64,000 nucleotides of DNA from Nitrospirae bacterium JdFR-86 (GCA_002011815.1 MTOV01000002.1:3246-67245); one strand, 5' to 3'; numbered from the stretch's first letter, positions 2,224 through 63,713 are shown. A program made the numbers and translations. Notes: generated from the sequence alone by a model not told the origin.

Positions 2224-2288
2224 CAAGGGGACATGGTCCCATTCTCCAGGGACACAGTCCCATCTTTCAGGGACACAGTCCTACTCTT
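2224..2288. repeat. 3 tandem units of about 21 bp, each containing a 5-bp-stem palindrome (GGGAC-ACA-GTCCC)
   Basis: The units are caaggggacatggtcccattctc / cagggacacagtcccatcttt / cagggacacagtcctactctt. They are related to the in-frame repeat in waaA at 63510..63572. Confidence 0.85.
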
Positions 2289-2329
2289 AAATCTAGAATC
2301 GCCGATGGAAGCAGATAAAGGACTGAAAA

Positions 2330-2620
2330 GGCTGACAGTATTGGTCTTCACTCATTCTCGAAGAACACCCTATTCAAACTTGTTACTTTTTTGCTTGCCC
2401 AAAAAAGTAACCAAAAAAGGGCACCCAAGGAAAATCTCCGGGCGTTCCGCTCAGTCTGCCTCCGCTGAATTAATTCAAACTCGGCTTCGCCTCAAACACG
2501 AATTAATTCTTAACGCTTCGACATCCTTCGCTCCACTGAGATTTTCCAATGGGGTTATAAGGTTTACACCAATGCTGCCAGCATTAACAAAAGTTCTAAC
2601 GGTAAATTTCAGATGTATCA
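2330..2620 (-). repeat. structured intergenic repeat, copy A (inverted relative to copies B-D)
   Basis: Its reverse complement aligns almost base for base with 9381..9661. Termini are GGCTGACAGTATTGGT ... ACCAATGCTGCCAGC. Confidence 0.9.
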
Positions 2621-2660
2621 AAAGCTGGCACTCTCCCTCTTATTCCTGTTTTAATATACC

Positions 2661-3773
2661 GTGGCTATGGTTATCGTTAAAAACTCATCTTATGAATACA
2701 AAGAACTAAGGACAAACGTCTTTGAGATATTGTCACGCCTTGATGACAACCTTATAAAAGAAGGCTCGAAAGTTATCATAAAGCCGAATCTCCTTACCGC
2801 ATCCAGACAGGACAAAGCCATTACAACCCATCCGCTTGTAATAAAAGCCGTTACAGAGTATGTAATCGCCAAGGGCGGAAGACCGCAGATATCAGACAGT
2901 CCTCCGATGGGCTCGTTTGACAAAATTATCAATGTATGTGGCTTAAAAGACGCACTTCATGGGATGCCTGTAACAATCAGGGAGTTTAAAACATCAAAAC
3001 CAGTTCAAACAGAAGGAAAATTCAAAAATATAGAACTCTCAACCGATGTGCTTGAGGCAGATGTTATCATAAACCTGCCTAAACTCAAGACCCATTCCCA
3101 GATGGGACTTACCCTTGCTGTAAAAAACCTCTTCGGCTGTGTCATAGGGATTAAAAAACCCCAGTGGCATTACAGAGTGGGAGAAAACAAAAACCTGTTT
3201 GCAGAACTGCTCGTTACGATTTATAAAATCCTCTCACCCTCCATTAACCTCATGGACGGAATACTTGCAATGGAAGGAGACGGTCCGGGCACAGGAGGCA
3301 CTCCAAGACATATAGGAGTCCTGATAGGCAGTAACGACGCACTGTCCATGGATATGCTCGTGTGCGAAATGCTCGGCATCAAACCGCTTTCCATCCCCAT
3401 AAATAAAATCGCTGATAAGATGGGACTTGCAAAAGACTTTACTGTCTCAGGCAAAGTGCCTGCTGTAAAGGACTTTATCATGCCTTCCTCAACTGACCTG
3501 CTTTTTGGACCTAAATTCGCACACAAACTCTTAAGACGCCACCTTACGAGCAAGCCTGTAAACATTAAAAACGCCTGCAAGCTCTGCAACGAATGCGTTA
3601 AGATGTGCCCTGCTGAAGCACTCAAAAACCAGGGGAAACACCTTGAATTCGATTACGAAAGATGCATCAGATGCTACTGCTGCCTTGAAATCTGCCCGCA
3701 CGCCGCCTTGAAAAAACAAGAACCTTTTTTGAAAAAAACACTCGAAAGATTCTGGGACTTAAGATACAGATAA
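2661..3773 (+). CDS. DUF362-type protein with C-terminal 2x[4Fe-4S] ferredoxin motifs
   Basis: 370 aa. It has a DUF362-like VIIKPNLL...THP region plus CKLCNECVKMCP and CIRCYCCLEICP. The start is GTG 2661 or ATG 2667. Confidence 0.7.
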   Translation: MAMVIVKNSSYEYKELRTNVFEILSRLDDNLIKEGSKVIIKPNLLTASRQDKAITTHPLVIKAVTEYVIAKGGRPQISDSPPMGSFDKIINVCGLKDALHGMPVTIREFKTSKPVQTEGKFKNIELSTDVLEADVIINLPKLKTHSQMGLTLAVKNLFGCVIGIKKPQWHYRVGENKNLFAELLVTIYKILSPSINLMDGILAMEGDGPGTGGTPRHIGVLIGSNDALSMDMLVCEMLGIKPLSIPINKIADKMGLAKDFTVSGKVPAVKDFIMPSSTDLLFGPKFAHKLLRRHLTSKPVNIKNACKLCNECVKMCPAEALKNQGKHLEFDYERCIRCYCCLEICPHAALKKQEPFLKKTLERFWDLRYR

Positions 3774-3784
3774 TTACAGAAATA

Positions 3785-3901
3785 GCTGGCAGGACTGGTA
3801 CTGAACGGTTTTCAGCATCACGCCTCACGGTGAGGCGTGATGCTGCCTCGGAGGCAGGCTGGATGCCTGCCGAGAATGAGTGAAGACCAGTCCTGCCAGC
3901 C
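3785..3901 (+). repeat. short variant of the structured repeat (same inverted termini, different interior)
   Basis: GCTGGCAGGACTGGT ... ACCAGTCCTGCCAGC form a perfect 15-bp terminal inverted repeat. The interior holds a 33-nt perfect palindrome at 3813..3845. The CGAGAATGAGTGAAGACC module is shared with the long copies. Confidence 0.85.
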
Positions 3902-3946
3902 TTTACAGGAATTGAATACTCTGCTTTGAATGCTTTATCCTAAGAC

Positions 3947-6574: not shown

Positions 6575-9381
6575 TGGAAAAATATCTTGATGTAACAAAA
6601 AGCGTAATAATCTCCTCACCTGCAGGCTCAGGCAAGACCGAAAAGCTTGCCAGACGCTATATAAGCCTCTTAAACAACGGTTCTGACGTGGAAAAAATCC
6701 TCTGTATTACCTTCACAGAGAAGGCAGCAGCAGAAATGAAACAGAGGATATTAAGCATCCTTGAAAAGGAAGACACTCAGTTGTTTGAAAAAATCAGGGA
6801 CAAGATTCCCCTTATGCGCATATCCACTATTCATGCCTTCTGCCTGAAAATCTTAAAGAGGTTTTCCATTGAACTCGGGCTTGACCCTTCGCTCACTGTA
6901 ATGGACGAGCTTACTGCCCATTCCCTCTGGACAGAAGCCGTATACGAAAGCCTCATGGCTGAAAAAGAAAACCCGTCTGATTTCTTCCATATGATAAAAG
7001 AAAGAGGCTTAAGAGGATGGAACGCCCTCCAGAGGGCACTTGAAGAACTGCACAAAAAAACCCCCTATCCTGAGATGATACTGAAGGACGGGCTTCCGCC
7101 TGATGGAGACAGTAAAAGGATTCTTGAGTTATACGGAAAATGCCTGCACAGATACAAGCAGAAGAAGGCACAGAAGCATCTGCTTGATTTCGCTGACCTT
7201 GAGATGCTTGCTTATGAAGCCCTCTCCAGAGGTCCTGAATGGCACAATATTCTTTACTCTTTTGACGAACATACAGACCACATACTGGTAGATGAGTTTC
7301 AGGATACGAACACACTTCAGTGGAAGATTATAGACAAGCTCACAGAGGAGTGGCGTTCAGGCATCGGGGCAAAAAAAGACCTGGGGAAAACGCCTACGAT
7401 ATTCCTTGTCGGAGATGAAAAACAGTCCATATACCAGTTCAGAGGCGCTAATGTAAGCATATTCCATGAGGCAAAGGAAAAATTCTCAGAGTGGCTGGGC
7501 AAGGAATACCATTTCATAGAGGTCAAGGAAAACTACAGAAGCCTTCCTGCAATAACAAACTTCACAAACAGCCTGTTCGGAAAGCTCATGTCCCCTGAAC
7601 TCATCGAAAGCTGGAAGACGAAATACACGCCTTTTGAGGCGACAAGGCAGGGAGACGGCAGAGTTGAACTCATACTGCTTGAAGGTGCTGAAACCACAAA
7701 AGAGACACGCACGAAAGAAGCCTCTGTGCTTGCAAAGGCAATAAAGTCCCTGCATGAAAGATACGAGATATACGACGGAGACTCCAGAAGACCGTGCAAT
7801 TTCGGGGACATGGCAATACTTTTAAGAAGGAGAACCCATCTCGGGCTTTTTGAAGACGCCTTAAGAAAAGAGGGCATTCCGTTCATAGTGCTTAAGGGTA
7901 TGGGGTTTTATGAAGAGCCTGAGACAGCAGTGCTAAGAGAGTTTATCTGCTTTATCGTAGACCCTTCGGACGAATACAGTCTTTTCTGTCTTCTCAGGTC
8001 TCCTCTATTTTCAATAGACTACAAAACCCTTTCACGGCTTGTCACAGGCAGGAAGCCGCTTCTTGAAAAACTAAAATCATCTGAAAACAAAAAGCTCAAA
8101 GACGCAGTTGGTGTAATCGAAGGCTGGCTCAATGCGAGCGGTCACACCCCTTTGCCCATGCTTCTTGAACAGGTATTCCTCGATACCGGCGCATGGGTGT
8201 ACTACTCGGAAAAACAAAGGCATGCAAACATCAAAAAATTCATAAACATGATTGAGTCGTTCGAGGCACAGGGACTTTCTCCTATAGAGATAAGGGAGAA
8301 ACTTTTAAGACAGCGTCATGCCACAGAGGTCGCAAAAGCAAACATAAATGCAGAAGGAATGAATGCAGTAAAGATAATGACCATACATGCAGCCAAAGGG
8401 CTTCAATTCCCAATGGTGTTTATACCTTCCCTGGATGAAAGCACAAGCCCAAGAAGCAATTCCGTAGTCATAGACTACGAAGGGGAAAACATCATCTTCA
8501 GCTATGAGGAAGAGCTTTCAGCAAGGAAAAAGAACCCATATTTCACAAAGAAGAAACTCAAGGAGCTGGAGGAAGAAAAGCGCCTGTTTTATGTAGCTGT
8601 CACCAGAGCCATGGACTATCTGTGCATGCTGGGCTCAGTCAAAGAGGGTAAAAAGCCTCAGGGAAGGCTTGCTTATCTTGATGATGCCTTTGGAATCTTA
8701 AACAAAGAAAAAGACAACCCTGCTGATTTACCGTTTCAAGTGCTTTCTGAAGAAGATGTATCCAAGCGGTATCAAAAAGCAGGACTAAGGCTTACTGATG
8801 CTGACACGTTCATAGATGCACCTGTTTATACAGAGCCGGTCTCATACGAGCCGAAAGCAACGTGGCGGGATGTAACCGAGGACACAGACATAAGAGTAAA
8901 GCACGGCGAGGACTGGGTAATAATAGGAAGCGTGATGCACAGGGTTTTTGAAGAACTCTCAAAAGGCATATTAAAAGAAGAACACATAAAGGAAAGAACA
9001 TCTCATCTTTTGCGTGCTGAGGCAGCAGCAGACGACAGATATCTTAACGCCATACTCGATGACATCGAAAAGCTCAAAGCACACGGCTATATGAAAGACA
9101 TAATACTGCCTCGTAAAGACTCCTTTGCCGAACTACCGTTTATCCTTGAGAAGGGAAAAAGCATCTTCAGAGGGAGAATAGACAGGCTGATTATCCAAAA
9201 GAATACTGCCCTCATCTATGACTATAAGACCTTTCCTGTGAAAGACAAGGAGATGCCTGAACTCATTGAAAAATACCGGTTTCAGATGGAGATTTACAAA
9301 GAAGCCGTGGAAAGGCTTTTCTCCCTAAGGACAAAGGCACTTCTTTTGTTCACGCACACACCTGAGGCAGTAGAGATATAA
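6571..9381 (+). CDS. AddA/UvrD-family SF1 helicase with C-terminal nuclease domain
   Basis: Helicase motifs are SPAGSGKT, VDEFQDTN, FLVGDEKQSIYQFRGA and TIHAAKGLQFP. The C-terminal GRIDRLI...IYDYKT is a PD-(D/E)XK motif. I prefer ATG 6571 (ATGA overlap with the upstream stop) over the TTG at 6550 in the ORF track. Confidence 0.8.
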   Translation: MMEKYLDVTKSVIISSPAGSGKTEKLARRYISLLNNGSDVEKILCITFTEKAAAEMKQRILSILEKEDTQLFEKIRDKIPLMRISTIHAFCLKILKRFSIELGLDPSLTVMDELTAHSLWTEAVYESLMAEKENPSDFFHMIKERGLRGWNALQRALEELHKKTPYPEMILKDGLPPDGDSKRILELYGKCLHRYKQKKAQKHLLDFADLEMLAYEALSRGPEWHNILYSFDEHTDHILVDEFQDTNTLQWKIIDKLTEEWRSGIGAKKDLGKTPTIFLVGDEKQSIYQFRGANVSIFHEAKEKFSEWLGKEYHFIEVKENYRSLPAITNFTNSLFGKLMSPELIESWKTKYTPFEATRQGDGRVELILLEGAETTKETRTKEASVLAKAIKSLHERYEIYDGDSRRPCNFGDMAILLRRRTHLGLFEDALRKEGIPFIVLKGMGFYEEPETAVLREFICFIVDPSDEYSLFCLLRSPLFSIDYKTLSRLVTGRKPLLEKLKSSENKKLKDAVGVIEGWLNASGHTPLPMLLEQVFLDTGAWVYYSEKQRHANIKKFINMIESFEAQGLSPIEIREKLLRQRHATEVAKANINAEGMNAVKIMTIHAAKGLQFPMVFIPSLDESTSPRSNSVVIDYEGENIIFSYEEELSARKKNPYFTKKKLKELEEEKRLFYVAVTRAMDYLCMLGSVKEGKKPQGRLAYLDDAFGILNKEKDNPADLPFQVLSEEDVSKRYQKAGLRLTDADTFIDAPVYTEPVSYEPKATWRDVTEDTDIRVKHGEDWVIIGSVMHRVFEELSKGILKEEHIKERTSHLLRAEAAADDRYLNAILDDIEKLKAHGYMKDIILPRKDSFAELPFILEKGKSIFRGRIDRLIIQKNTALIYDYKTFPVKDKEMPELIEKYRFQMEIYKEAVERLFSLRTKALLLFTHTPEAVEI

Positions 9382-9661
9382 AATTACCGATAGAACTCTT
9401 GTTAGGGCTGGCGGCATTGGTGTAAACCTTATAACCCCATTGGAAAATCTCAGTGGAGCGAGGGCTGCCGGAGCGTTAAGAATTAATTCGTGTTTGAGGC
9501 GGAGCCGAGTTGGAATTAATTCAGCGGAGGCAGACTGAGCGGAACGCCCGGAGATTTTCCTTGGGCGCCCTTTTTTGGCACTTTTTTGGGCGAGCAAAAA
9601 AGTGCAAGGGATTTTGAACAGGATATTCTTCGAGAATGGGTAAAGACCAATACTGCCAGCC
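9381..9661 (+). repeat. structured intergenic repeat, copy B (most complete)
   Basis: 15-bp inverted termini are GCTGGCGGCATTGGT / ACCAATACTGCCAGC. The interior is a long imperfect hairpin followed by the hairpin GCACTTTTTTG-GGCGAG-CAAAAAAGTGC. It begins at the addA-like stop codon. Confidence 0.9.
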
Positions 9662-9727
9662 CTTTCAACTCCTTGCCAGTTTTTCTATCAGCGATTCCAG
9701 ATAGAGATATAGCCGTTTATAGCGATA

Positions 9728-9736
9728 TGCTAAAAT
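9728..9736 (+). promoter_or_regulatory. extended -10 element (TGcTAAAAT), 6 nt upstream of the oppB-like ATG
   Basis: Read directly. No Shine-Dalgarno lies between it and ATG 9743, and no good -35 is present. Confidence 0.35.
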
Positions 9737-9742
9737 AAAAAA

Positions 9743-12140: not shown

Positions 12141-12221
12141 AGCAGGGAAATTCTATCAAAGCAGAGATTTAAAATACAACTCCCAGAAACGCCGATAGAA
12201 AAACAAACAGGGAACTTATCT

Positions 12222-12482
12222 AACCCCATTTGAAAATTTCAGGCTGACGAGGTCTGCCGAAGGGTTAAAAAATTTTAGTGTGTTTGAGGTCGATCCGACC
12301 GAGTTTGCAGAAATTTTACCGGAGGCAGACCGAGTAAGCCGCCCGGAAATTTTCATGGGGCGCCCTTTTTTGGCACTTTTTTGGGCGAGCAAAAAAGTGC
12401 AAGGCATTTTGAACAGGATGCCCCTTCGAGAATAAGTGAAGACCACTGCTGTCAGCATTAACAAGAGCTCTACCGGCAATTT
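12222..12482 (+). repeat. structured intergenic repeat, copy C (left terminus missing)
   Basis: It is collinear with copy B from AACCCCATTTGAAAATTTC onward. Stems carry compensatory changes. The right terminus is ACCACTGCTGTCAGC plus ATTAACAAGAGCTCTACCGGCAATTT. Confidence 0.85.
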
Positions 12483-14783: not shown

Positions 14784-15575
14784 TTACCATCCGCCTGTAG
14801 CACCACCGCCGCCGAAGCCGCCGCCTCCGCCACCGCCGAAACTGCCAAAGCCTCCGCCGCCGAAACCACCGCCACCGAAACCACCGCCCCAGTAACTTCT
14901 TCTTCCGCCCATTCCTGAAAACAGCAGAATCAGAAGCAGCAGCCTTGGATGCCTTATAAATAATATTACCAGACCTATAAGAACAAGAACCGAAAGCAAC
15001 GCACTTAAAAGACTCGGCTTGCCGGCAGGTCTTCCGCCATAGCCTCTTGTGTAAACAGGCCTCAGCTTTGGCATGCCTGTTATCTCAACCCCGTGCTCTT
15101 TTGCAATCTCCCCTGCTACTGCAAGCACTGCTGCGGCTATGCCGTTTGAGTAATCACCTTTTCTGAAAAACGGCACGATATACTGCCTGCCGATAGTCCC
15201 CACAAGGCTGTCAGGCAGTATGCCTTCAAGTCCGTATCCTATTTCAAACCTGTATTTCCTTTCTTTCATTGCGACCAGAAGCAGTGCGCCGTTGTCCTTG
15301 CCTTTCTGCCCGAGTTTCCATTTCTCTGCAACCTCAAGGGAAAAGTCCTCTATAGCCCTGCCCTCGAGTGTATCTATGGTCAGAACGACCATCTGCGCTG
15401 TGGTCTTCTGCTCAAGCTCCTGAAGAAAGCCGTTGAGCTTCATCTCAACGCCGTCATCCACGATACCTGCCATATCAACCACATACCTCGGCGGTACTTC
15501 AGGTATCTGAAGAGCAAAGGCAAGTGAACTGAATAAGACTAAGACAATGACAAATAGGCTATATCTTAATTTCAT
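14784..15575 (-). CDS. TPM-domain (YgcG-like) membrane protein with Gly-rich C-terminal tail
   Basis: 263 aa. It has a signal peptide, a TPM-like domain (VVDMAGIV...QMVVLTIDTLEG), a TM helix and a GGGFGGGGFGGGG tail. The LemA/TPM pairing is common. Confidence 0.7.
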   Translation of the reverse strand: MKLRYSLFVIVLVLFSSLAFALQIPEVPPRYVVDMAGIVDDGVEMKLNGFLQELEQKTTAQMVVLTIDTLEGRAIEDFSLEVAEKWKLGQKGKDNGALLLVAMKERKYRFEIGYGLEGILPDSLVGTIGRQYIVPFFRKGDYSNGIAAAVLAVAGEIAKEHGVEITGMPKLRPVYTRGYGGRPAGKPSLLSALLSVLVLIGLVILFIRHPRLLLLILLFSGMGGRRSYWGGGFGGGGFGGGGFGSFGGGGGGGFGGGGATGGW

Positions 15576-28953: not shown

Positions 28954-30900
28954 ATGAAAACCAAAGTTAAAACAAAAACTGAATATAAGGGGAGGAAGAA
29001 GTCCTCGGGGCTCACAGATAAATTCTTTAAGACCATTCTTGACAGTATAAACGACACAATCTCCATCATTAATGTTCGTGATTTCAGAATAACCGCAGTC
29101 AACAGTGTTTTTCTTAAAGAATTCAAGCTGAAAGAAGAGGAAGTCATAGGGAAGACCTGTTACGAAGTAACCCACCACCGGACCGAACCGTGCACACCGC
29201 CGGACAATACCTGCCCCCTTCTTGAGACCCTCAAGACCGGCAAACACTCAAAAACCGAGCATATACATTACGACAAGAATGGTGAAAAAACATATGTAGA
29301 GGTCTCTACATCGCCGATATACGATGGAAACGGAAAGATTATACAGGTCGTCCATGTAGCCAGAAACATCACCGAGCGCAAAAAGGCAGAGGAGGCGCTG
29401 TCGCGGGAGTTAAGAGTCAACTCGGCAATAGCCGAGCTGTCCAGCGCACTCATCTCAACGATGTCGATTGATGACCTTTCATACATAGTGCAGGAGAAAG
29501 CCAAGAGTCTTACGGACAGCACGCTCGGTTATGTAGGCTATATTGACCCGCACACAGGTTATCTTATCTGTCCCACGCTTACCAAAGACATCTGGGAGAC
29601 CTGTCAGGTTACAGCTAAAGGCACAGTGTTTGAGAAGTTCGCCGGTTTGTGGGGGTGGGTATTAGAAAACCGCAAACCTCTCCTGACCAACACACCAGCC
29701 GATGACCCGCGGTCATCAGGAATTCCGCAAGGGCACATACCAATCAAACGATTTCTGTCTGCCCCTGCACTCATTGGTGAAATGCTCGTCGGACAGGTGG
29801 CAGTAGCCAACGCAGAGCGTGACTACACTGAACGGGACCTTGAAATGATAGAACGCCTTGCTGCACTTTATGCAGTAGCCGTCCAGCGAAAATGGGCAGA
29901 GGAAGAATTAAAAACCCACCGCGACAACCTTGAGTACATGGTAAGGGAACGCACTGCAAAACTAACTACTGCCAATAAGCGCCTTAAGCTCGAAATTACC
30001 GAACGCAAACAGGCAGAAAAAGAACTGAAAGAATCAGAAGACAAATTCAAAAGTCTGGCTGAGGAATCACTGGTCGGTGTTTATCTCATACAGGACGGGT
30101 TGTGCAAGTATGTTAATCCGAGGTTAGCCGAAATATTCGGCTATACAGTAAAGGAACTGATAGACAAAAAAGGTCCCAAGGATGTAGTTCTGCCCGAGGA
30201 CTGGCCGATTGTCGAGAAAAATCTCAGAAAACGGATATCAGGCAAGGTCAAATCCATCCATTACGAGTTCAGGGGAGTGAGAAAGGATGGAGAGGTTATA
30301 CATGTAGAGGTTTACGGTTCCCGGACAACATACAATGGCAAGCCAGCCATTATAGGGACCTTGCTGGACATCACCGAGCGCAAGAAAATGGAAGAGCTTC
30401 TTCTTCGGTCCAAGCAGGACTGGGAAGACACATTCAACACTATCACCGACATGGTCACCATTCATGACAAGGACTTCAATATAATACGCGCTAACAAGGC
30501 CGCTGAAAAAATACTCGGGCTGCCTTTTCTGGAAGTCAAAAAAGCAAAGTGCTATAAGTATTACCACGGAACAAACTGCCCTCCTGAAAATTGCCCCAGC
30601 TGCCAGTGTCTCAAGACAGGAAAGCCCACCACCTTTGAAATGTTTGAGCCTCATTTGAATATGTTTATTGAAATCAGAGCCATCCCACGCTTTAACAACA
30701 ATAACGAACTTGTAGGCTTAATCCATGTTGTCAGGGATATCACCGAGCGGAAAAAAATAGAGGATGAGCTTAATAAGAGAGTTGAAGACCTTGAAAGATT
30801 CTACGACCTGGCTGTGGACAGAGAACTCAAGATGAAGGAACTTAAGGAGGAGATAAGACGACTGAAAGCGGAACTTTCCCGCTACAAAGACAACTGCTAA
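28954..30900 (+). CDS. multi-domain sensor without recognisable output: Cys/His-PAS, GAF, PAS, Cys/His-PAS, C-terminal coiled coil
   Basis: 648 aa. PAS ends are marked by ITERKK motifs. The Cys/His motifs are CYEVTHHRTEPCTPPDNTCP and CYKYYHGTNCPPENCPSCQC. The GAF-like middle has PLLTNTPADDPR. The tail is FYDLAVDRELKMKELKEEIRRLKAEL. Confidence 0.75.
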   Translation: MKTKVKTKTEYKGRKKSSGLTDKFFKTILDSINDTISIINVRDFRITAVNSVFLKEFKLKEEEVIGKTCYEVTHHRTEPCTPPDNTCPLLETLKTGKHSKTEHIHYDKNGEKTYVEVSTSPIYDGNGKIIQVVHVARNITERKKAEEALSRELRVNSAIAELSSALISTMSIDDLSYIVQEKAKSLTDSTLGYVGYIDPHTGYLICPTLTKDIWETCQVTAKGTVFEKFAGLWGWVLENRKPLLTNTPADDPRSSGIPQGHIPIKRFLSAPALIGEMLVGQVAVANAERDYTERDLEMIERLAALYAVAVQRKWAEEELKTHRDNLEYMVRERTAKLTTANKRLKLEITERKQAEKELKESEDKFKSLAEESLVGVYLIQDGLCKYVNPRLAEIFGYTVKELIDKKGPKDVVLPEDWPIVEKNLRKRISGKVKSIHYEFRGVRKDGEVIHVEVYGSRTTYNGKPAIIGTLLDITERKKMEELLLRSKQDWEDTFNTITDMVTIHDKDFNIIRANKAAEKILGLPFLEVKKAKCYKYYHGTNCPPENCPSCQCLKTGKPTTFEMFEPHLNMFIEIRAIPRFNNNNELVGLIHVVRDITERKKIEDELNKRVEDLERFYDLAVDRELKMKELKEEIRRLKAELSRYKDNC

Positions 30901-31910
30901 TGAATAAAGAGATTGCTTGCAGAATGCTCGGTCAACATATAAACAGCTGGCAGTCCCTTCTCGATGCCCTGCCCCATCCAGTGTTCGTTCAAGATACGGA
31001 ATACAACATCGTAACGGCAAACAGAGCGTTCATCGGTCTCTATGGAAAAAACGGTGATGTCAGGGGCATGAAATGCTACCAGTTACTTCACGGGAAAGAC
31101 AAGCCGGTAAAGAACTGCCCTACGGTAAGAGTGCTGAAAACCGGAAATACGGAAAGGTCTGAAGTCCATGAAGACTCCAATGGGAGGGTTCTGCTCATGA
31201 TGACATCCCCCATAATTGAAGACAACAGCATTATAGGCATCGTCCATTCGTTCACGGACATAACAGAATTAAAAAAACGGGAACGCGCCCTCCAGAGAAC
31301 CAGGGAAGCCTTCCTCAACATGCTTGAGGACATACACGAGTCATACACGGAACTCGAAGACCTTTTTATAAAACTCATAAAGGCACTTGTTAATGCCTTG
31401 GATGCAAAGAGTCCGTGGACAAGAGGTCATTCCGAAAGGGTGGCATCATACGCAGAGCAGATTGCAAAAGAGATGGGGCTTGATGAAGACGAAATAAAAA
31501 ATCTTCAGCTCGCAGGACTTCTGCACGACATCGGGAAAATAGGCACTTACGATTCCCTTCTGGATAAGCCCGAAAAACTCACAGCCGAAGAGTTCGAAAT
31601 CGTAAAAAAGCACCCTGACCAGGGTGCGGCGATTCTTCAGGGAATAAAACAATTAGCAGACGTAATCCCCATAATCAGACATCACCATGAAAGGCTTGAC
31701 GGAAAGGGATACCCTGACGGGCTTAAAGGAGAAGAGATACCACTCAGTGCGAGAATTCTCCATGTGGCTGACTCATTCGACTCGATGACAGCAGACAGAC
31801 CATACAGACCATCCCCTGGCAGAGAATATGCCATATCCGAATTGAAAAAACACAGCGGCAGGCAGTTTGACCCTCAAGTGGTCGAGGCGTTCTTAAAAAT
31901 TATCGACTGA
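30900..31910 (+). CDS. Cys/His-PAS plus HD-GYP domain protein (putative c-di-GMP phosphodiesterase)
   Basis: 336 aa. It has CYQLLHGKDKPVKNCP, then HD-GYP hallmarks (GLLHDIGKI, HHHERLDGKGYPDGL). The start forms a TAATG overlap with the upstream gene. Confidence 0.8.
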   Translation: MNKEIACRMLGQHINSWQSLLDALPHPVFVQDTEYNIVTANRAFIGLYGKNGDVRGMKCYQLLHGKDKPVKNCPTVRVLKTGNTERSEVHEDSNGRVLLMMTSPIIEDNSIIGIVHSFTDITELKKRERALQRTREAFLNMLEDIHESYTELEDLFIKLIKALVNALDAKSPWTRGHSERVASYAEQIAKEMGLDEDEIKNLQLAGLLHDIGKIGTYDSLLDKPEKLTAEEFEIVKKHPDQGAAILQGIKQLADVIPIIRHHHERLDGKGYPDGLKGEEIPLSARILHVADSFDSMTADRPYRPSPGREYAISELKKHSGRQFDPQVVEAFLKIID

Positions 31911-31981
31911 TTGTTGTTAATATAGCTAAAATCAAGATGATAAGTTCCCGTTGTTTATTAACTTTTTCGTTTGGAAAAAGC

Positions 31982-32009
31982 TTGACACACCCTATCGGTG
32001 TGATATCTT
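31982..32009 (+). promoter_or_regulatory. candidate promoter (TTGACA, 16-nt spacer, extended -10 TGATATCTT)
   Basis: Read directly. It lies inside the TTG-started ORF extension, which supports ATG 32065 as the true start. Confidence 0.35.
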
Positions 32010-32064
32010 CTCATATAGGAGGCCTAACAATACGTTGCCACTTCGAAACAGAGGCATCTGGAAA

Positions 32065-33117
32065 ATGATACTAAGAAAGAAAGAGCTTTTAAAAATAGAA
32101 GACCCTTGTCTTTTGCTTCACAGCCTATCACAGACTTACCTCAAAAACGGTGCTTTTAAGAATGCACTGAATATCACTGTTCAGAAGACTAAAGAATTCT
32201 ACAGGTCAGATTTTGCAACGATATTTCTTTCTGAAGAAGATGGAAAAAACCTCACAATCGAAGCGGACTACGGACGCAAAAATAACAGAACCCACATAAA
32301 AATACCTATTAACTCCGGAACCCCCGAAGGATTTGTTTTTCTAAACAAACAATCTGCTGTAATCACAGACATTACAAAGGAAAGCCGTTTCAAGATAGCA
32401 GAACCAATCAGAAAAGACGGAGTAAAAAGCGGCATTTGGGCGCCTATGATTGTAGATAACCATCAAGCTCTGGGGGTTATCAGTGTCTGTTACAAAAAGA
32501 CAATAGACGTGCCAGCGTTTGTCGTATGGTTTCTGGAAACAATTGCAAACAGTCTTGCGGTTTACATCAAAAAAGAGAAGACTTTGCAGGAGGCTATGCA
32601 AACAAATACCTTTCTCACCTCAGTTCTTGAAGGAATGGGAGAAGGGGTCGTTGTCGTAGACCGGGATTTCAAAATCCTCAGGGCAAACAAAAGCTACTGC
32701 ACTAAGGTCAAGATGAGCTGCAGTGAAATAGTAGGCAGGTATTGCTATGAAATTTCTCATCATCTGTCAAAGCCGTGCTACGAGGCAGGCGAGGAATGCC
32801 CTGTAAAAGCAGCCTTTGAGACAGGTTACAGCCGCAGGGTAGTGCATACACATCTCGACAAAGAGAACAAACCCACTTACTTGGAAATCATTTCATATCC
32901 CTTAAAGAACATGGCGGGCAATATAACATCTGCAATCGAAGTGTTTACAGATGTTACTGAAAGGGTTGCCCTTGAAGAAGAGCTGAACAAAAAAATAAAA
33001 GACCTTGAAGAATTCTATGACATGGCAGTGGACAGAGAACTGAAGATGATAGAGCTCAAAGAGGAGATACAGCGTCTCAGAGAAGAGTTAGAAAATCTAA
33101 AAAAGGAAAAGCAGTGA
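32065..33117 (+). CDS. GAF plus Cys/His-PAS sensor with C-terminal coiled coil, no output domain
   Basis: I prefer the start at MILRKKELL over TTG 31951. The PAS domain has CYEISHHLSKPCYEAGEECP. The tail FYDMAVDRELKMIELKEEIQRLREEL is paralogous to the tail of the 28954 gene. Confidence 0.7.
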   Translation: MILRKKELLKIEDPCLLLHSLSQTYLKNGAFKNALNITVQKTKEFYRSDFATIFLSEEDGKNLTIEADYGRKNNRTHIKIPINSGTPEGFVFLNKQSAVITDITKESRFKIAEPIRKDGVKSGIWAPMIVDNHQALGVISVCYKKTIDVPAFVVWFLETIANSLAVYIKKEKTLQEAMQTNTFLTSVLEGMGEGVVVVDRDFKILRANKSYCTKVKMSCSEIVGRYCYEISHHLSKPCYEAGEECPVKAAFETGYSRRVVHTHLDKENKPTYLEIISYPLKNMAGNITSAIEVFTDVTERVALEEELNKKIKDLEEFYDMAVDRELKMIELKEEIQRLREELENLKKEKQ

Positions 33118-35252
33118 GATTTAAAATCCCGTTTACAGCCAGCCTGATAGGGGCGCTGACCGGTTACCTCATACTTTCGCCGTTTACAATGTATGTCTCT
33201 CATGTTGTGCACAGGTATCAGTCGCCTACTGATATGAGCGTTTATAAAGTCTTTCTGCCTGAGTTCTGGCAATGGGCAGTGTTTTTTGTGATTTTCGGCA
33301 GCATTGCAGGTCTTGTCATAGGCATGCTCTACAAGAGTATAAGAGAGCGGACATCGGAAATCAGAGAGACAAAAAATTACATGGAAATGCTTTTCAACAG
33401 CGTCGCCGACGGGATAATAACCATTGACCGACAGTATAGAATCAAAAACGCCAACAAGGCATTCCTTGATATGACAGGCTCCACCCGCAACAAGGTAATA
33501 GGCGAATATTGCTACAAAGTCTTCCATAGAAAGGATAAGCCGTGCAGCGGCGCTGAATACAGCTGCCACCTTAACGATGTCTTTGAATCAGGAAAATCCA
33601 TGACAGCCGTTCATACGCATCAGGACAGAAAAGGCAATTTAATACTTACCGAGATCACATGGCATCCACTCAAAGGCAAGGAAGACCAAATACCGCAGAC
33701 TGTCGCCATCATAAGGGACATAACCATGCGTAAAAAAAATGAAGCAGACCTAAAAGCCGCTTTGGCTTACGCCGAAAGCATCGTTGAAACCATACACGAA
33801 CCACTTATTGTTCTTAATGCGGACTTTCGCGTCGTATCGGCAAATCGTGCATTTTATGAAACCTTTATGGTTGCCCCGGAAGAGACAGAAAACAAGCTTA
33901 TTTACGAACTCGGCAACCGGCAGTGGGACATTCCAGAACTCAGAAGACTCCTCGAGGACATCATTCCCCAAAATACCAGTTTCAATGATTTCGAGGTCAC
34001 ATATAACCTCCCAAACGTCGGCACCAAAACACTACTGCTTAATGCCCGCCGCATCCGCCAGAAGGGAAAGGGCACCGACATGATACTGCTTGCTATCGAT
34101 GACATTACCGAACGCAAGCAGCTGGAGCAGAAGATAAAAGACTACACCTTGAATCTCGAAAACATGATAGAGGAAAGGACAAAGGAGCTTAAAGAGTCGG
34201 AGAAAAAACTCAGAAACATAATGGAAAGTGCTCCAATCGGTATTGTGGTGAGCACTCCCGAGGGTGAAATCATCGAGGCAAACCCTGCCATGCTTAAAAT
34301 GTTCGGCTATGACACGAAAGAAGAGTTCTTAACGCAACGGGCTCCTGACTGTTATTACAATCCGAAAGACAGGGAGCGTTTTATCGGACTCATCGAAAAG
34401 GGCATAGTCAGAGACTTTGAGGTGCAGTTTAAGCGCAAAGACGGCAGTATCTTCTGGGGGGCGATGAGCTCTATAACCCAGATGACCAAAACCGGAAAGA
34501 CTCAGTTCATCAACACAATACAGGACATCACCAAACGCAAACAGGCAGAACAATTAGCGCGCGAAGCACAGGAAGGACGCATTCGCGCTGAAAGACTCGC
34601 TGCCATCGGGAAACTCTCATCGGCAGTAGGACATGAATTAAGAAATCCCATTGGTGCCATAAACAATTCCATTTACTTCCTGAAAATGGTTTTAAAGGAG
34701 CCTTCTGAAAAAGTAAAAAAACACCTTGACATGATAGAGGAACAGGTAAAGTTGTCAAATGAAATAATTACCGACATGCTTGAGTTTGCAAGAGGAAGAG
34801 AACCTGTCATGGGAGACATCGACATCAACAACGTATTAAAGGAAAGCATTGCACAGGCTACCGTGGCAGAGAATATAGAAATCAAGACTAATCTCGACCC
34901 TTCTGCCCCAATCATAAAAGGCGACAGGACTCAACTCACTAGGGTATTCAACAACTTGATATCAAACGCCCTCGACGCCATGCCGCAGGGAGGAATGCTT
35001 TCGATAACCATCAGAGCAAATCCTAAGGACGCCTCCTTAGAAGCCGTATTTGAAGACAACGGCACAGGAATCGCCAAAGAGAACCTTAACAAGATATTCG
35101 AACCTTTGTTTTCCACAAAGACAAAAGGCATTGGTCTGGGGCTGAGTATATGCAAGATGTTCGTGGAAAAACATGGAGGGACAATTGAAGTCAGCAGTGA
35201 GATAGGAAAGGGCTCAACCTTCACTGTAAAGCTTCCGCTTAAGAAGGCTTAG
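33114..35252 (+). CDS. membrane-anchored PAS x3 sensor histidine kinase
   Basis: 712 aa. It has 2 N-terminal TM helices. The first PAS carries CYKVFHRKDKPCSGAEYSCH. The H-box is SAVGHELRNPI, and N/G1/G2 boxes are NLISNALDA, DNGTGI and GIGLGL. The start forms a GTGA overlap with the upstream stop. Confidence 0.85.
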   Translation: MRFKIPFTASLIGALTGYLILSPFTMYVSHVVHRYQSPTDMSVYKVFLPEFWQWAVFFVIFGSIAGLVIGMLYKSIRERTSEIRETKNYMEMLFNSVADGIITIDRQYRIKNANKAFLDMTGSTRNKVIGEYCYKVFHRKDKPCSGAEYSCHLNDVFESGKSMTAVHTHQDRKGNLILTEITWHPLKGKEDQIPQTVAIIRDITMRKKNEADLKAALAYAESIVETIHEPLIVLNADFRVVSANRAFYETFMVAPEETENKLIYELGNRQWDIPELRRLLEDIIPQNTSFNDFEVTYNLPNVGTKTLLLNARRIRQKGKGTDMILLAIDDITERKQLEQKIKDYTLNLENMIEERTKELKESEKKLRNIMESAPIGIVVSTPEGEIIEANPAMLKMFGYDTKEEFLTQRAPDCYYNPKDRERFIGLIEKGIVRDFEVQFKRKDGSIFWGAMSSITQMTKTGKTQFINTIQDITKRKQAEQLAREAQEGRIRAERLAAIGKLSSAVGHELRNPIGAINNSIYFLKMVLKEPSEKVKKHLDMIEEQVKLSNEIITDMLEFARGREPVMGDIDINNVLKESIAQATVAENIEIKTNLDPSAPIIKGDRTQLTRVFNNLISNALDAMPQGGMLSITIRANPKDASLEAVFEDNGTGIAKENLNKIFEPLFSTKTKGIGLGLSICKMFVEKHGGTIEVSSEIGKGSTFTVKLPLKKA

Positions 35253-59262: not shown

Positions 59263-59601
59263 AAAACCCCCTTTGAAAATTTCAGGTTCATGAAGGAGAC
59301 CGGAGGGTTAAAAATTTTTGCATGTCTGAGGTCGGCTCGACCGAGTTCTGCAAAAATTTACCGGAGGCCGACTGAATGAACCGCCCGGAAATTTTCATGG
59401 GGCGCCCTTTTTGCGCTACTTTTTGGGCGAGCAAAAAGTAGCAAGGGGTTTGGGACGGAGACCGACCAATACGTTTGAAGCACTCTTTAAAAGTGGCTGT
59501 GCCACCGAGCAAAAAGTAGCAAAAGGGTTTTGGAAATTTCAGGAGGTTGAAGCAACTCTGTGCGAAGACTCGCTTCGAGGCGAAGCGTTAAGAATTAATC
59601 C
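59263..59601 (+). repeat. structured intergenic repeat, copy D (one core unit plus a rearranged partial second unit)
   Basis: The core is collinear with copy C (AAACCCCCTTTGAAAATTTCAGG ... GCTACTTTTTG-GGCGAG-CAAAAAGTAGC). A truncated terminus GACCAATACG follows. Then come a second GAGCAAAAAGTAGCAA and GGAAATTTCAGG...GCGTTAAGAATTAAT. Confidence 0.8.
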
Positions 59602-59619
59602 ATAGAGGCAGCGATGCTG

Positions 59620-62446: not shown

Positions 62447-63713
62447 CCCTGACTGCCCTGTCCACAGCCCCGCTGTTCTTTTTCAAAAGCTCCTCGGCTC
62501 TTTTTCCAATTGACTGCCTTTTTTCAGGAGATGACAACAGTTCTTTTAAGACATCGTAAAGGTTTGAATTGTCAGCCCTTAGTGCGGCACCGGCACTGTA
62601 GAACTCTTCCACAAAGGGAAAGTTTTCCATGTGAGGTCCACACACCACCGGCTTGCCCCAGTATGCAGGCTCAAGCGGATTATGACCGCCATGCTCTATA
62701 AAACTGCCTCCGACTACAGCTACATCAGATATCCCGTACACAGATGAAAGCTCACCAATAGTGTCAAGTAAAACAACCATGCCTGAAACAGAACCCGAAA
62801 TCCTGCTTCTTCTGACATACAGAACTCCCCTTGCCTTTAGAAGGCTTTCAACCTCATCAAATCTCTCAGGATGCCTTGGAGCTATGATTAAATTCAAATC
62901 CTTGAAATCCTCCCTGAGCTTAACAAATACAGAGACCATTAACTCCTCTTCACCTTTATGCGTGCTTCCAGCTACAATCACCGGAGGAGTCAGGTTTTCA
63001 GCCCATGCTGGTTTTTCAAGTGATAGTTTAATATCGAACTTAAAACTCCCTGTAATTATTACATTTTCTTCCTTCGCTCCAAGCTCTATTATCCGTCGGG
63101 CATAGATGTCGTCCTGCATGCAGAACATGTCAACGTCCTGTATAACTTTTTTCATGAAGAACTTTATCTTCTTATAGCCTTCAAAGGAGTTGTCTGAGAT
63201 TCGTCCGTTAAGGACGACTACAGGTATTCCGTTGGCTTTGAGGGTTCTGAATGTATTGGGCCACATCTCAGTCTCAACAGTGACAAAAAGTGAAGGCTTT
63301 AACCTGTTTATTGCCCTTTTGATGATAAAACCCATATCAAAAGGCACATATATTACATCTGCCAGTCCTGAGAGGCGTTCACGTGCGACTTTCTGCCCTG
63401 TATCCGTTACAGTAGAGACTATTATCTTCAGGCTGGGGTGTCTTTCTTTAAGCGCTTTAATAAAGGATGAGGCAGCTATAGCTTCTCCCACAGAGACCGC
63501 ATGAACCCACAGAGTCACAGACCCATCCTCCAGAGTCACAGACCCTTTCTCCAGGGTCACAGACCCACCCTCCCTGATTACAGACACGTCTGGCACTGCG
63601 CCCAGTTTTTCACGCAGCCATCTTTTTCTTATGTCTTTCGGTCTTTTGTAGTATTCAAAAGGGAACAAAAAGACCTGAACTATAAGGTATATCAGACTAT
63701 AAAGCAGACGCAT
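62418..63713 (-). CDS. waaA: 3-deoxy-D-manno-octulosonic acid (Kdo) transferase, with an in-frame heptapeptide repeat near the N-terminus
   Basis: 431 aa. [24 protein letters not shown] and [14 protein letters not shown] are collinear with E. coli WaaA as I recall it. Confidence 0.85.
63510..63572. repeat. 3 perfect-period 21-bp tandem units inside waaA (encode [21 protein letters not shown]), plus a degenerate fourth unit to about 63590
   Basis: The units are cagagtcacagacccatcctc / cagagtcacagaccctttctc / cagggtcacagacccaccctc. Each contains a GxGTC-ACA-GACCC palindrome. Confidence 0.9.

Follow-up and report, generated by a model that had tools for sequence, protein, structure and literature searches.

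A widespread, multicopy bacterial element that looks like an undescribed structured family, with a predicted pseudoknot and U.A-U triplex module

Introduction

Long cis-acting triple helices built with an A tract are found in eukaryotic long noncoding RNAs, in viruses, and in eukaryotic transposons. The pseudoknots of telomerase RNA and of the SAM-II, SAM-V, and preQ1-II riboswitches form three to four triples, have a ligand or catalytic role, and are present as single copies in fixed gene contexts. REP-like elements can be co-transcribed with their neighbors, and REPs can stabilize upstream mRNA; to our knowledge, families of the REP and MITE type are restricted to a species or genus. In a 2026 review, the long major-groove RNA triple helices of bacteria are those of riboswitches and a group II intron. 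Another multicopy element, MRSC-65-2, has a long covarying stem and dozens of copies per genome in diverse phyla, with an inconsistent orientation, and it is possibly relevant as DNA (Narunsky et al. 2024, PMC11109978). It is described as one long stem in which UYCCGG recurs, and the paper makes no mention of a triplex (PMC11109978).

Here we analyze a 64,000-nucleotide stretch (the window) of a Thermodesulfovibrionales (Nitrospirota) metagenome contig, in which an earlier sequence-only reading had noticed a family of structured intergenic repeats. Like MRSC-65-2, this family is a multicopy long-stem element found in diverse phyla with inconsistent orientation.

Results

A repeat search of the window recovered the family (copies A and B are 90% complementary over 222 nt), and all copies are found where the sequence-only reading had put them, with the stems that it quoted present as described. 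The window contains four full copies (A to D), a frame-only variant (E), and one fragment adjoining D, and a fifth full copy lies ~8.3 kb past the window's right end on the same contig (Table 1). A degenerate 26-nt core pattern matches exactly four sites in the window, where shuffles expect 0.00, and each copy folds far better than its own shuffles (z, -4.3 to -5.6). The elements are mis-called as small hypothetical proteins, and no Pfam hits are on record for the ORFs called over the window elements.

Table 1. Positions of the repeat copies and their predicted parts, counted from the first letter of the window
Feature	Position	Strand	Remarks
Sites of the 26-nt core pattern	2419-2444 (-), 9545-9570, 12340-12365, 59382-59407		
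Copy A: TIR frame, long hairpin, and pseudoknot module	2293..2609	-	Ends by homology to B
Copy A, predicted pseudoknot/triplex module	2380..2426	-	Covariance model R1: 75.7 bits, E = 5.8e-16
Variant E: frame only, unrelated small inner hairpins	3772..3913	+	Arms 3772-3799 and 3886-3913
Copy B, left target-site duplication TAGAGATATA	9371..9380	.	Overlaps addA stop codon
Copy B: full element, 321 bp, at addA 3' end	9381..9701	+	
Copy B, subterminal inverted repeat, 5' arm GCTGGCGGCATTGGT	9407..9421	+	Pairs with 9646-9660, closing stem of fold
Copy B, long hairpin P0: base CCCC/GGGG, AU-rich outer stem, internal loops, variable apical hairpin	9435..9565	+	
Copy B, conserved apical motif UGUUUGAGG-(small hairpin)-CGAGUU	9491..9511	+	
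Copy B, predicted pseudoknot/triplex module	9563..9607	+	R1: 59.0 bits, E = 4.6e-12
Copy B module, 5' parts	S1a 9566-9570; third-strand U-run 9571-9576; Watson-Crick U-run 9582-9587		
Copy B module, 3' parts	S1b 9588-9592; AGC 9593-9595; A-run 9596-9601		
Copy B, subterminal inverted repeat, 3' arm ACCAATACTGCCAGC	9646..9660	+	
Copy B, right target-site duplication TAGAGATATA	9702..9711	.	
Copy C: full core, frame end types swapped relative to A and B, 5' subterminal arm missing	12182..12482	+	
Copy C, predicted pseudoknot/triplex module	12358..12402	+	R1: 59.0 bits, E = 4.6e-12
Copy D: core only, without frame	59265..59445	+	Begins 14 nt past nuoM stop codon
Copy D, predicted pseudoknot/triplex module, runs 5/5/5	59400..59445	+	R1: 49.6 bits, E = 7.3e-10
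Second-copy debris beside D	59500..59598	+	Sequence compared with copy outside window

A lineage-specific frame of ~320 bp with terminal inverted repeats (TIRs) surrounds copies A to C and the one beyond the window. When E is included, there are four framed elements in the window and one outside it, with element lengths of 142 to 321 bp. In A, B, and E, the imperfect terminal repeats are AAATTACCGATAGAA... at one end and ...TTCTATCAGCGATT at the other, and the subterminal repeats are GCTGGCRG... and ...CYGCCAGC; C lacks one subterminal arm, and D has none. The subterminal arms differ among A, B, and E, yet their pairing is kept, G.U pairs included. Relative to the core, the frame of C and of the outside copy is flipped compared with that of A and B. 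The 15-nt sequences that had been described as inverted termini are inverted repeats, but they are subterminal, and the true ends of A, B, C, and E are those in Table 1. Variant E, which had been taken for a short member of the family, has the terminal and subterminal inverted repeats of A to C and so shares the outer frame, but it has no structured core and the core model R1 gives no match to it. Copy D, which had been counted among the TIR-ended copies, has no inverted termini; its supposed tail is a duplicated 3' half of stem S2 (GAGCAAAAAGTAGCAA) followed by the 5' half of a second copy's long hairpin, of the same type as the hairpin in the copy outside the window. An independent assembly breaks within this debris.

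A perfect 10-bp direct repeat, TAGAGATATA, lies on either side of copy B, and 0.3% of random site pairs show one as good. A search for such target-site duplications, which the sequence-only reading had proposed as a check, detected none at A, C, D, or E; of the five framed elements, one has a duplication. The frame motifs are found only on this contig (0 occurrences among loci fetched from other contigs), and the window ORFs and the loci from other contigs yielded no autonomous element that shares its ends. The earlier statement that the window holds no transposase agrees with our scan, in which none appears among the 47 ORFs scanned (best 25 of 88 families listed). The suggestion of a MITE-like element is supported for the outer frame, with its TIRs and the direct repeat at B. 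The copies are composed of two separable parts, a cross-phylum core and a contig-specific TIR frame.

A full copy contains a strand-specific core of ~185 nt, in which an imperfect hairpin of ~130 nt (P0) is followed directly by a 47-nt module. Among seven full-length relatives, compensatory changes on both sides are present in 25 of the 54 predicted pairs, which bears out the earlier description of a multicopy family with covarying stems. The apex of P0 has a conserved motif, UGUYUGAR-hairpin-GAGUU, that is carried by 34 of 195 related copies, mostly 67 to 94 nt upstream of the module (~150 nt upstream in two), and that has 0 occurrences in both control regions. Unpaired motifs (UGUYUGAR...GAGUU, AGC, and ACCGGAGGC) are kept across phyla, and one 3' module is common to several different upstream architectures. 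Within a genome, paralogous copies keep their folds via many different compensatory changes, which suggests lasting selection on each copy and not neutral decay after insertion.

A metagenome scan and a genome scan together yielded 234 non-identical instances of the module. Since a single exact pattern ascertained all related copies, it fixed most of S1 and the loop in advance; it left free the base 5' of GCCC and the equality of run lengths. Based on the covariation described below, we read the module as an H-type pseudoknot in which S1 is YGCCC/GGGCR and S2 has 10 to 11 bp, with five variable bases and a U-run predicted to pair with an A-run and five variable bases. The loop-1 U-run, which is of equal length, would run parallel to the A-run within the major groove of the U-run/A-run helix, forming 5 to 8 consecutive U.A-U triples with an occasional C+.G-C triple. 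For example, the module of copy A is UGCCC-U6-G-GUUAC-U6-GGGCA-AGC-A6-GUAAC. We are confident that this anatomy and family assignment are very probably correct. The sequence-only reading had listed a "second hairpin" and "CCCTTTTTT" as separate features; they are the two halves of this one conserved module.

The covarying S1 Y..R pair is U..A in 122 copies, C..G in 72, and U..G in 2, while 26 of the 234 copies have a G..A mismatch at this position. All three runs are equal in length in 200 of the 234 copies (6/6/6 in 107, 5/5/5 in 77, and 7/7/7 in 16). In the outer S2 stem, 881 of 936 cells are paired across the 234 copies, and there are 93 G.U or U.G wobbles versus 7 C.A or A.C mismatches, which fixes the folded strand. 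Among the 120 genome copies, the paired fraction of cells is 97.0%, compared with 83.3% in shuffled sequences, the covariation score is 0.320 compared with 0.094 (the observed score was reached by 0 of 500 shuffles), and every slid pairing register is worse than the proposed one. There are also whole-helix S1 swaps (CUUGAU/AUCAAG, CCUCC/GGAGG, CGUCC/GGACG, and CACCC/GGGUG).

Nine copies have an A-run that is asymmetrically interrupted by G, and in eight of them the loop-1 run is a perfect parallel match (e.g., UUUUCUUU over AAAAGAAA with UUUCUUUU as the Watson-Crick strand, and UUCUUU over AAGAAA). An antiparallel third-strand match occurs in 0 of these 9 copies, and the third strand is uncompensated in one interrupted copy, L083. 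These cases may come from only two or three independent events. If S2 has n + 5 bp, our geometric reading is that a one-base linker should suffice after n triples, which fits the constant 5-bp outer stem. The covariation is that of an ENE/MALAT1-type triplex, with a parallel U-rich Hoogsteen strand, an A-rich strand, and a second U-rich Watson-Crick strand. The module is followed by an A-rich stretch of ~8 nt and not by a U-tract. G.T wobbles and T.A-T and C+.G-C triples are also possible in single-stranded DNA (ssDNA), such that the sequence alone fits either RNA or ssDNA.

The search of Rfam that had been recommended was run with Rfam 15. At the gathering score it gave 0 matches in the window and only three tRNAs among 20 related loci, that is, no match of the element to a catalogued family, and at E values of up to 10 or up to 1 it gave only microRNA and snoRNA noise. 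The Rfam 15 covariance models of SAM-II, SAM-V, preQ1-II, HEARO, IS605-orfB, and TwoAYGGAY had no match.

Further copies, another check proposed, extend far beyond one genome, with at least 233 related loci in public data. The module is multicopy in Bacteroidota, Thermodesulfobacteriota, Nitrospirota, Bacillota, Fusobacteriota, Latescibacterota, and Balneolaceae, and the core family is present in at least seven bacterial phyla. Carriers are also found within Desulfobulbaceae, Clostridia, and Negativicutes and include one Thiomicrorhabdus metagenome-assembled genome and Ilyobacter polytropus. No IMG/VR viral contig matches the collecting pattern, and the module is missing from the phage records and all but missing from plasmids. 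Four relatives with a NuoM identity of 82 to 86% have no core downstream of nuoM. Tandem arrays and nested debris occur, and assemblies break inside the repeat.

No recurrent partner gene was found beside the >230 loci, and no transposase, RAYT, TnpB, reverse transcriptase, or integrase recurs there; the largest cluster of neighboring ORFs is of sensor kinases (14 ORFs in 9 loci). The resemblance to REP/REPIN-RAYT systems stops at the missing recurrent RAYT neighbor and at the core itself, which is ~185 nt with a predicted pseudoknot and not a 20- to 40-nt palindrome. Nor was there a recurrent cluster of neighboring ORFs of the kind expected for a TnpB/IscB omega-RNA or other guide-RNA scaffold, which, some orphan copies apart, would lie at the end of its nuclease gene or beside it. 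The orientation of neighboring genes (++ 42, -- 28, +- 27, and -+ 26) is close to random, and the 28 copies that are antisense to both neighbors are intact. A close, long upstream ORF is co-oriented with the element in 31 of 40 cases, a count confounded by intergenic length, and the sense bias versus neighboring genes (++ 42 versus -- 28) is weak. In four Bacteroidales loci, the element is in the leader of a NusG-paralog gene.

Discussion

Based on its many copies in at least seven phyla and the lack of a match to any catalogued RNA family, the core looks like an undescribed, widespread structured element. Our best overall explanation, to which we assign a probability of about 0.45, combines such a structured family with a role as an exonuclease block and with transposition of the frame. 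The fold most likely forms in RNA, where the folded core would be an unusually stable plug in cis that stops exonucleases. A transcript containing the plug would be protected, as is the case with enterobacterial REP elements and with eukaryotic and viral MALAT1/ENE triple helices. This putative exonuclease-blocking function we put forward tentatively. Within this genome, the element would spread by transposition of the frame, carried out by a transposase encoded outside the window. If the element had an RNA function at the host level, a sense bias versus neighboring genes would be expected, and the weakness of the one seen counts against such a function.

A different possibility is that the element is purely selfish and that its fold matters only as ssDNA, recognized by an ssDNA-acting transposase or recombinase, with no host RNA role. 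This would account for the near-random orientation of flanking genes, for a multicopy family whose abundance is lineage specific and whose orthologous site is empty in relatives, for the tandem arrays and nested debris, for the assembly breaks inside the repeat, and for the duplication at B; the strand-specific wobbles fit one DNA strand equally. However, none of the mobility genes sought recurs beside the >230 loci, and viral contigs and phage records lack the element, as do nearly all plasmids. We know of no ssDNA transposon (IS200/IS605 or IS91) that makes a target-site duplication. The 10-bp duplication at B is unlike the products of such transposons and belongs to the separate TIR frame, which is on this contig only, whereas the core is kept across phyla. 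The compensatory changes by which paralogs keep their folds also argue for lasting selection on each copy, and we consider a purely selfish element unlikely. The core could also belong to independently transcribed small RNAs or ribonucleoprotein scaffolds, in which the apical motif and pseudoknot bind a conserved protein or machine and act in trans. The persistence of the unpaired motifs across phyla, the use of the same 3' module under several upstream architectures, and the intact copies antisense to both neighbors are all consistent with this. Against it, the surroundings of the copies showed no conserved promoter or terminator, a copy can begin right at a stop codon (B), and no candidate partner gene co-occurs locally. 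We regard trans-acting RNAs as distinctly improbable.

The sequence-only reading had suggested that copies B and D might double as terminators, and more generally the core could be an unusual terminator, attenuator, or insulator, in which the long hairpin and U-run stop RNA polymerase and the downstream hairpin modulates this. B and D do lie in sense orientation behind long operons, beginning 0 to 14 nt past their stop codons, and in some subfamilies (clusters 2 and 3) an alternative upstream pairing of YGCCC can bring the stem right up to the U-run. The four Bacteroidales loci in NusG-paralog leaders also point this way. The capsule-operon leaders of Bacteroides fragilis contain a terminator to be read through. 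NusG paralogs of this species enhance transcript elongation at pause sites in these leaders (PMC11685472). In the window copies, however, the GC-rich 5-nt spacer YGCCC separates the stem from the U-run, and a consensus terminator scan calls none of A to C and calls D only via a 5-bp side hairpin. The spacer covaries with its partner, GGGCR, on the downstream side of the U-run, so that selection acts on the read-through RNA, and the U-run co-varies as a third strand with the downstream U-run and A-run. The module has no U-tract after it, convergent and divergent contexts occur at nearly the same frequency (27 versus 26), and in 28 copies the element is antisense to both neighbors. A canonical intrinsic terminator fails on both anatomy (the 5-base spacer) and placement. 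The suggestion for B and D is not upheld by the spacer, the missing U-tract, or the near-random orientation, while the accompanying remark that A and C do not fit a terminator role is correct, as neither is downstream of a co-oriented gene. We give little credence to termination as the function of the core. Still less credible is a ligand-sensing riboswitch of the SAM-II, SAM-V, or preQ1-II type. Their topology is that predicted here, in which loop 1 of an H-type pseudoknot occupies the major groove of stem 2 (PMC6061858), but the Rfam models of these riboswitches are unmatched even at E values of up to 10, the number of triples ranges from 5 to 8, and genomes carry many copies, in either orientation and in unrelated gene contexts. 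This context effectively refutes the riboswitch reading.

Returning to the exonuclease-block explanation, the 47-nt module might be a bacterial counterpart of MALAT1/ENE that blocks exonucleases or a translocating helicase and that, together with the hairpin, would constitute a new RNA class; otherwise, it may serve as a handle for a conserved protein or mobility machine. The class would then have spread through at least seven phyla and been moved within genomes by local MITE-like frames. We propose this combination as a conjecture that is rather less likely to be right than wrong. If it is true, there is a new and abundant natural triplex with many copies per genome in multiple phyla, and one that is easy to study, being 47 nt long with several cultured carriers, among them Xanthocytophaga flavus NT2B1, Ilyobacter polytropus DSM 2926, and Salegentibacter holothuriorum DSM 23405. 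It would raise the questions of whether triplexes control RNA decay in bacteria, what maintains the folding of each paralogous copy, and how a noncoding core crosses phyla without phages or plasmids.

Compared with known systems, the core shares with telomerase RNA, SAM-II, SAM-V, and preQ1-II an H-type pseudoknot in which a U-rich loop 1 would form major-groove triples with stem 2. With REP/BIME, REPIN, and MITEs (Correia, ERIC, and RUP), the element has in common that it is short, noncoding, intergenic, and multicopy, with both orientations and long hairpins, and its likeness to MITEs specifically lies in the TIRs of the frame and the target-site duplication of one copy. In contrast to those families, the core keeps its sequence and fold across phyla, has a predicted pseudoknot/triplex and conserved loops, and shows compensatory change among paralogs, and no RAYT or matching IS element was found. 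The UYCCGG of MRSC-65-2 occurs here at 0.06 per long-hairpin-type element, which is of the same order as in the downstream control and sets the two apart by description and not by alignment (PMC11109978). MRSC-65-2 and the core, as compared by their descriptions only, may be the same family.

The module is also similar to MALAT1, MEN-beta, and PAN-ENE, in which two U-rich tracts and one A-rich tract of a single strand form stacked major-groove U.A-U triples with an occasional C+.G-C triple, closed by a G-C helix below and a duplex above, with the Hoogsteen strand parallel to the purine strand. This likeness comes from sequence, and the position of the RNA 3' end and the stabilizing role are putative; neither an RNase P step nor a poly(A) step is apparent for the element here. 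Unlike those RNAs, it is bacterial, multicopy, and dispersed, and at 47 nt it is a far smaller, minimal H-type pseudoknot. Its parts would map onto ENE+A in the order S1, U1, turn, U2, S1', short linker, and A tract, with the P2 stem-loop of the ENE corresponding to the 5-bp outer stem of the module.

Repeat family in the window

Repeat detection recovered the same multicopy family that had been proposed in the sequence-only reading, and all of the stems quoted there for its copies are found in the sequence. The window holds four full copies, A to D (Table), every one of which folds far better than its shuffles (z of -4.3 to -5.6), and a 26-nt degenerate core pattern has four sites there, versus 0.00 expected. 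The claimed stem covariation is borne out as well: of 54 predicted pairs, 25 have compensatory changes on both sides across the window copies and three relatives from other samples. The repeat family and its covariation are real. The stretch best conserved between the A/B and C/D subfamilies consists of the long hairpin's end and what had been called the second hairpin. A search of Rfam 15 with the family gave no match at the gathering score, nor at E values up to 10.

The window, which lies on contig Ga0314848_000003 (555 kb) of JGI metagenome 3300037583, is bacterial: its genes include AddAB, an SLT transglycosylase and a nuo operon (Pfam), and by its NuoM homologues (best identity 86%) it belongs to Thermodesulfovibrionales, Nitrospirota. 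These genes led to rejection of an origin in Methanosarcina, which the DITERK-type PAS repeats had suggested. The annotated ORFs that lie over copies A to D have no Pfam family on record and are probably spurious gene calls to which the repeats gave rise.

Table. Positions of the repeat copies and of the annotated ORFs over them (window coordinates unless stated)
Feature	Position	Strand	Remark
Copy A	2293-2609	-	full copy
Copy B	9381-9701	+	full copy
Copy C	12182-12482	+	full copy
Copy D	59265-59445	+	full copy
Copy E	3772-3913		frame without core
Fifth full copy, same contig	L240 (locus outside the window) 1310-1640; ~72,070-72,400 in window numbering	-	outside the window
ORF over copy A	2233-2709		158 aa
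ORF over copy B	9586-9738		50 aa
ORF over copy C	12280-12435		51 aa
ORF over copy D	59411-59605		64 aa

The core ends in a predicted pseudoknot

The core of the repeat is a structured unit of ~185 nt that consists of the long hairpin followed by a 47-nt module. In 234 non-identical instances, the module has the order YGCCC, U-run, G, 5 variable bases, U-run, GGGCR, AGC, A-run, 5 variable bases. The variable bases form the outer part of stem 2 (S2), in which 881 of 936 cells are paired, and the wobbles in this outer stem are 93 G.U or U.G versus 7 C.A or A.C, which indicates that the fold belongs to the strand that bears the U-runs. The base 5' of GCCC was left free in the search pattern; with the R of GGGCR it forms U..A in 122 instances, C..G in 72, U..G in 2 and G..A in 26. 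In other copies the whole of stem 1 (S1) is replaced, by CUUGAU/AUCAAG, CCUCC/GGAGG, CGUCC/GGACG or CACCC/GGGUG. Since S1 and S2 interleave, the module is an H-type pseudoknot. When 120 genome matches were aligned to a covariance model made from 52 copies, both helices had 97.0% paired cells, compared with 83.3% in shuffles, and a covariation score of 0.320, compared with 0.094 in shuffles; none of 500 shuffles attains the observed value, and all slid registers are far worse.

Two other readings of the module were rejected. Judged from the sequence, its spacings do not fit a sigma-54, sigma-70 or Bacteroidetes -7/-33 promoter, and a slippery-site (A AAA AAG) frameshift is at odds with run lengths of 5 to 8 and with the intergenic position of the sites.

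A hairpin always abuts YGCCC upstream of the module, and its form varies by lineage. The window form is ~130 nt long: its base is CCCC/GGGG, its outer stem is AU-rich, and the motif UGUYUGAR-[variable hairpin]-GAGUU lies at its apex. A scan of genome contigs with the base of the long hairpin gave no match, which suggests that this base is lineage-specific. The apical motif is present in 34 of 195 testable copies, mostly 67-94 nt upstream of the module, and is absent from both control regions. Its carriers are Desulfobulbaceae, Thermodesulfobacteriota, Bacteroidales, a Thiomicrorhabdus MAG and the window copies, which indicates that the entire ~185-nt core, beyond the module alone, is common to several phyla. 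Six copies in the one genome of Xanthocytophaga flavus retain their hairpins through differing compensatory changes.

A triple helix is predicted in the pseudoknot

The first U-run lacks a separate Watson-Crick partner, yet in 200 of the 234 copies it is as long as the second U-run and the A-run (6/6/6, 5/5/5 or 7/7/7). Such equal lengths could reflect either alternative pairing or a third strand, and we used copies with interrupted runs to decide between these. The A-run AAAAGAAA has the Watson-Crick strand UUUCUUUU and the first run UUUUCUUU; likewise, AAGAAA occurs with the first run UUCUUU and AAGAAAA with UUCUUUU. The first run is thus the mirror image of the Watson-Crick strand, that is, a parallel Hoogsteen match, and by sequence C+.G-C replaces U.A-U as the predicted triple in interrupted runs. 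Eight of nine asymmetric cases, across four different S1 sequences, have the parallel match and none has an antiparallel one, although these eight may go back to as few as two or three independent events. A Watson-Crick switch, in which the A-run would pair with either U-run, calls for identical rather than mirror-image interrupted runs, and we therefore prefer the triplex. H-DNA in duplex DNA is unlikely, because a cis A-run and, on the same strand, the S1 pairing are conserved too.

Loop 1 of an H-type pseudoknot leaves the junction next to the purine strand's 5' end and then follows the major groove of stem 2. For the module, in which the first U-run is loop 1, this path would be the geometry needed for a third strand. 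After n triples, one linker base could reach the far end of an (n + 5)-bp stem, and the constancy of the 5-bp outer stem would follow from this. Taken together, the alignments demonstrate a core that is structured and strand-specific and that has a predicted triplex pseudoknot.

Distribution across bacteria

We scanned metagenome contigs once and GTDB species genomes once with the pattern CCCTTTTTN{5,10}TTTTGGGCRAGCAAAA, which matched no fewer than 118 loci in the former and 115 in the latter. Carriers among the matches listed are, in Bacteroidota, Chitinophagaceae, Saprospiraceae/Haliscomenobacter, Flavobacteriaceae, Cytophagales and Bacteroidales, together with Desulfobulbaceae, other Thermodesulfobacteriota, Pseudodesulfovibrio, Ruminiclostridium, Ruminococcaceae, Phascolarctobacterium, a Nitrospirota MAG, Latescibacterota, Balneolaceae and a Thiomicrorhabdus MAG. 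By BLAST, the module is at six places on the Ilyobacter polytropus megaplasmid. Several carriers have many loci per genome, and in some of them ~195-nt units are repeated in tandem. Cultured carriers include Xanthocytophaga flavus NT2B1, Niabella hibiscisoli, Flavisolibacter ginsengisoli DSM 18119, Salegentibacter holothuriorum DSM 23405, Ilyobacter polytropus DSM 2926 and Pseudodesulfovibrio karagichevae 9FUS. The pattern is absent from IMG/VR viral contigs, and BLAST found no module match in phage records. The most conserved part of the repeat is not specific to the JdFR-86 genome, and the core belongs to a family that is multicopy, spans phyla and has no counterpart in Rfam.

In a Taibaiella MAG (L158, 1780-2505), four ~195-nt units lie in tandem with a module at the end of each; the last has lost the segment between the U-runs and reads TGCCC-T6-GGGCA, a deletion that resembles the outcome of run-to-run slippage or recombination. 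REP-like small palindromes, GGGGCRGAGCCCC, lie 3' of the core in related Nitrospirota and metagenome copies (L179, L006, L106, L112 and L194), and at L179 125-240 they are arrayed in tandem as ~38-nt units, each of which repeats the last S2 bases.

Frame and insertion sites

An outer frame with imperfect terminal inverted repeats (ends, AAATTACCGATAGAA) surrounds the core in copies A, B and C and in a copy 8.3 kb beyond the window. The 15-nt inverted repeat that had been described as the termini is present; it is subterminal in the frame and pairs as the stem that closes the fold. None of the frame motifs occurs in the loci retrieved from other contigs. Copy E is the same frame enclosing unrelated small hairpins, and in C and the outside copy the two types of end have exchanged sides of the core, compared with A and B, which indicates that frame and core are separable. 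Copy B alone has a putative target-site duplication: it lies between perfect 10-bp direct repeats, TAGAGATATA, of a length reached by 0.3% of random site pairs, and A, C, D and E have none. The insertion at B is on the addA stop codon, with TAG at the inferred empty site, predicted as ...GGCAG TAGAGATATA GCCG..., and TAA as the present stop. We conclude that the core has been dispersed locally on a MITE-like frame.

Copy D is a bare core that starts 14 nt after nuoM and is followed by debris from another copy. In four relatives whose NuoM is 82-86% identical, the core is missing 3' of nuoM and throughout 38 kb, and their intergenic DNA at nuoM is not alignable. In a Logan assembly of another run of the same strain (L241, SRR3723048), positions 12284-12425 are identical to the window over 142 aligned bases; this assembly ends inside the repeat of the D locus, which shows that the repeats fragment short-read assemblies. 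The fifth copy, the one outside the window, lies directly downstream of two tRNA genes and carries an additional small hairpin within the 5' strand of its long hairpin, an insert also found in the debris at 59533-59598.

The window has other repeats. Tandem 21-nt repeats, CAGGGACACAGTCCCATCTTT, each unit with a small palindrome, GGGACACAGTCCC, are at 2226-2280, adjoining copy A, and at 63489-63585, close to the window's right end. Two sensor-protein genes share segments (31387-31811 and 37071-37495) that are 72-79% identical, and a DITERK-coding 30-mer occurs six times in PAS-domain genes (29351-34553); both appear to be paralogous domain repeats of the ordinary sort. A CCGCCGCCGAA-type repeat at 14788-14916, with mixed 9- and 15-nt spacing, lies within a minus-strand ORF of the TPM_phosphatase family (14784-15575) and would encode a Gly-rich low-complexity tract.

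Genomic context and possible function

The genes flanking the elements are unrelated and housekeeping (175 Pfam families over 145 flanking ORFs). No family that might supply a partner gene was enriched when 1188 ORFs were compared all against all by BLAST, and sensor kinases are the sole recurring ORF family around the elements. A general link to NusG paralogs and polysaccharide leaders was rejected, as it is confined to four orthologous Bacteroidales loci (L052, L076, L093 and L169), the only ones with a NusG paralog (PF02357, 183 aa) near the element. At L052 and L076 this gene is co-oriented and lies 117-181 nt 3' of the point where the module starts; the ops-like GCGAAG at the NusG-paralog loci is part of a homologous hairpin strand. 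Among the other retrieved loci, sugar-transferase genes and Wzt-type ABC genes each recur at eight, which may hint at a link to polysaccharide-operon leaders in the Bacteroidales lineage.

The suggestion that copies B and D double as canonical terminators did not hold, given the 5-nt spacer, selection that sees the read-through RNA, and orientation. The ~8 nt 3' of S2 are A-rich, with no U-tract after S2. The orientation classes of neighboring genes are nearly even (++ 42, -- 28, +- 27, -+ 26), and the only bias, a close long upstream ORF that is co-oriented in 31 of 40 cases, is confounded by intergenic length. This nearly random orientation favors a serious rival explanation, in which the repeat is purely selfish and its role is at the DNA level. 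We infer instead that the fold acts in RNA, where the core, by analogy with REP elements and MALAT1/ENE triple helices, would be a very stable block to exonucleases.

Comparison with known systems

The module's motif is described in neither the Minerva preprint nor triple-helix reviews, and its literal sequence strings gave no match in literature text. The FopS sRNAs of Bacteroides were set aside, since their architecture differs and they are already in Rfam. MRSC-65-2 is a candidate described as a "single long stem" that is multicopy, occurs in several phyla and has a UYCCGG repeat (Narunsky et al. 2024, PMC11109978). The UYCCGG repeat is no feature of the core, and the paper makes no mention of a triplex, but MRSC-65-2 and the core may overlap to some extent. 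The bacterial triple helices listed in a 2026 review are riboswitches and a group II intron only. The core is kin to two known kinds of element, dispersed structured repeats and triple-helix pseudoknots.
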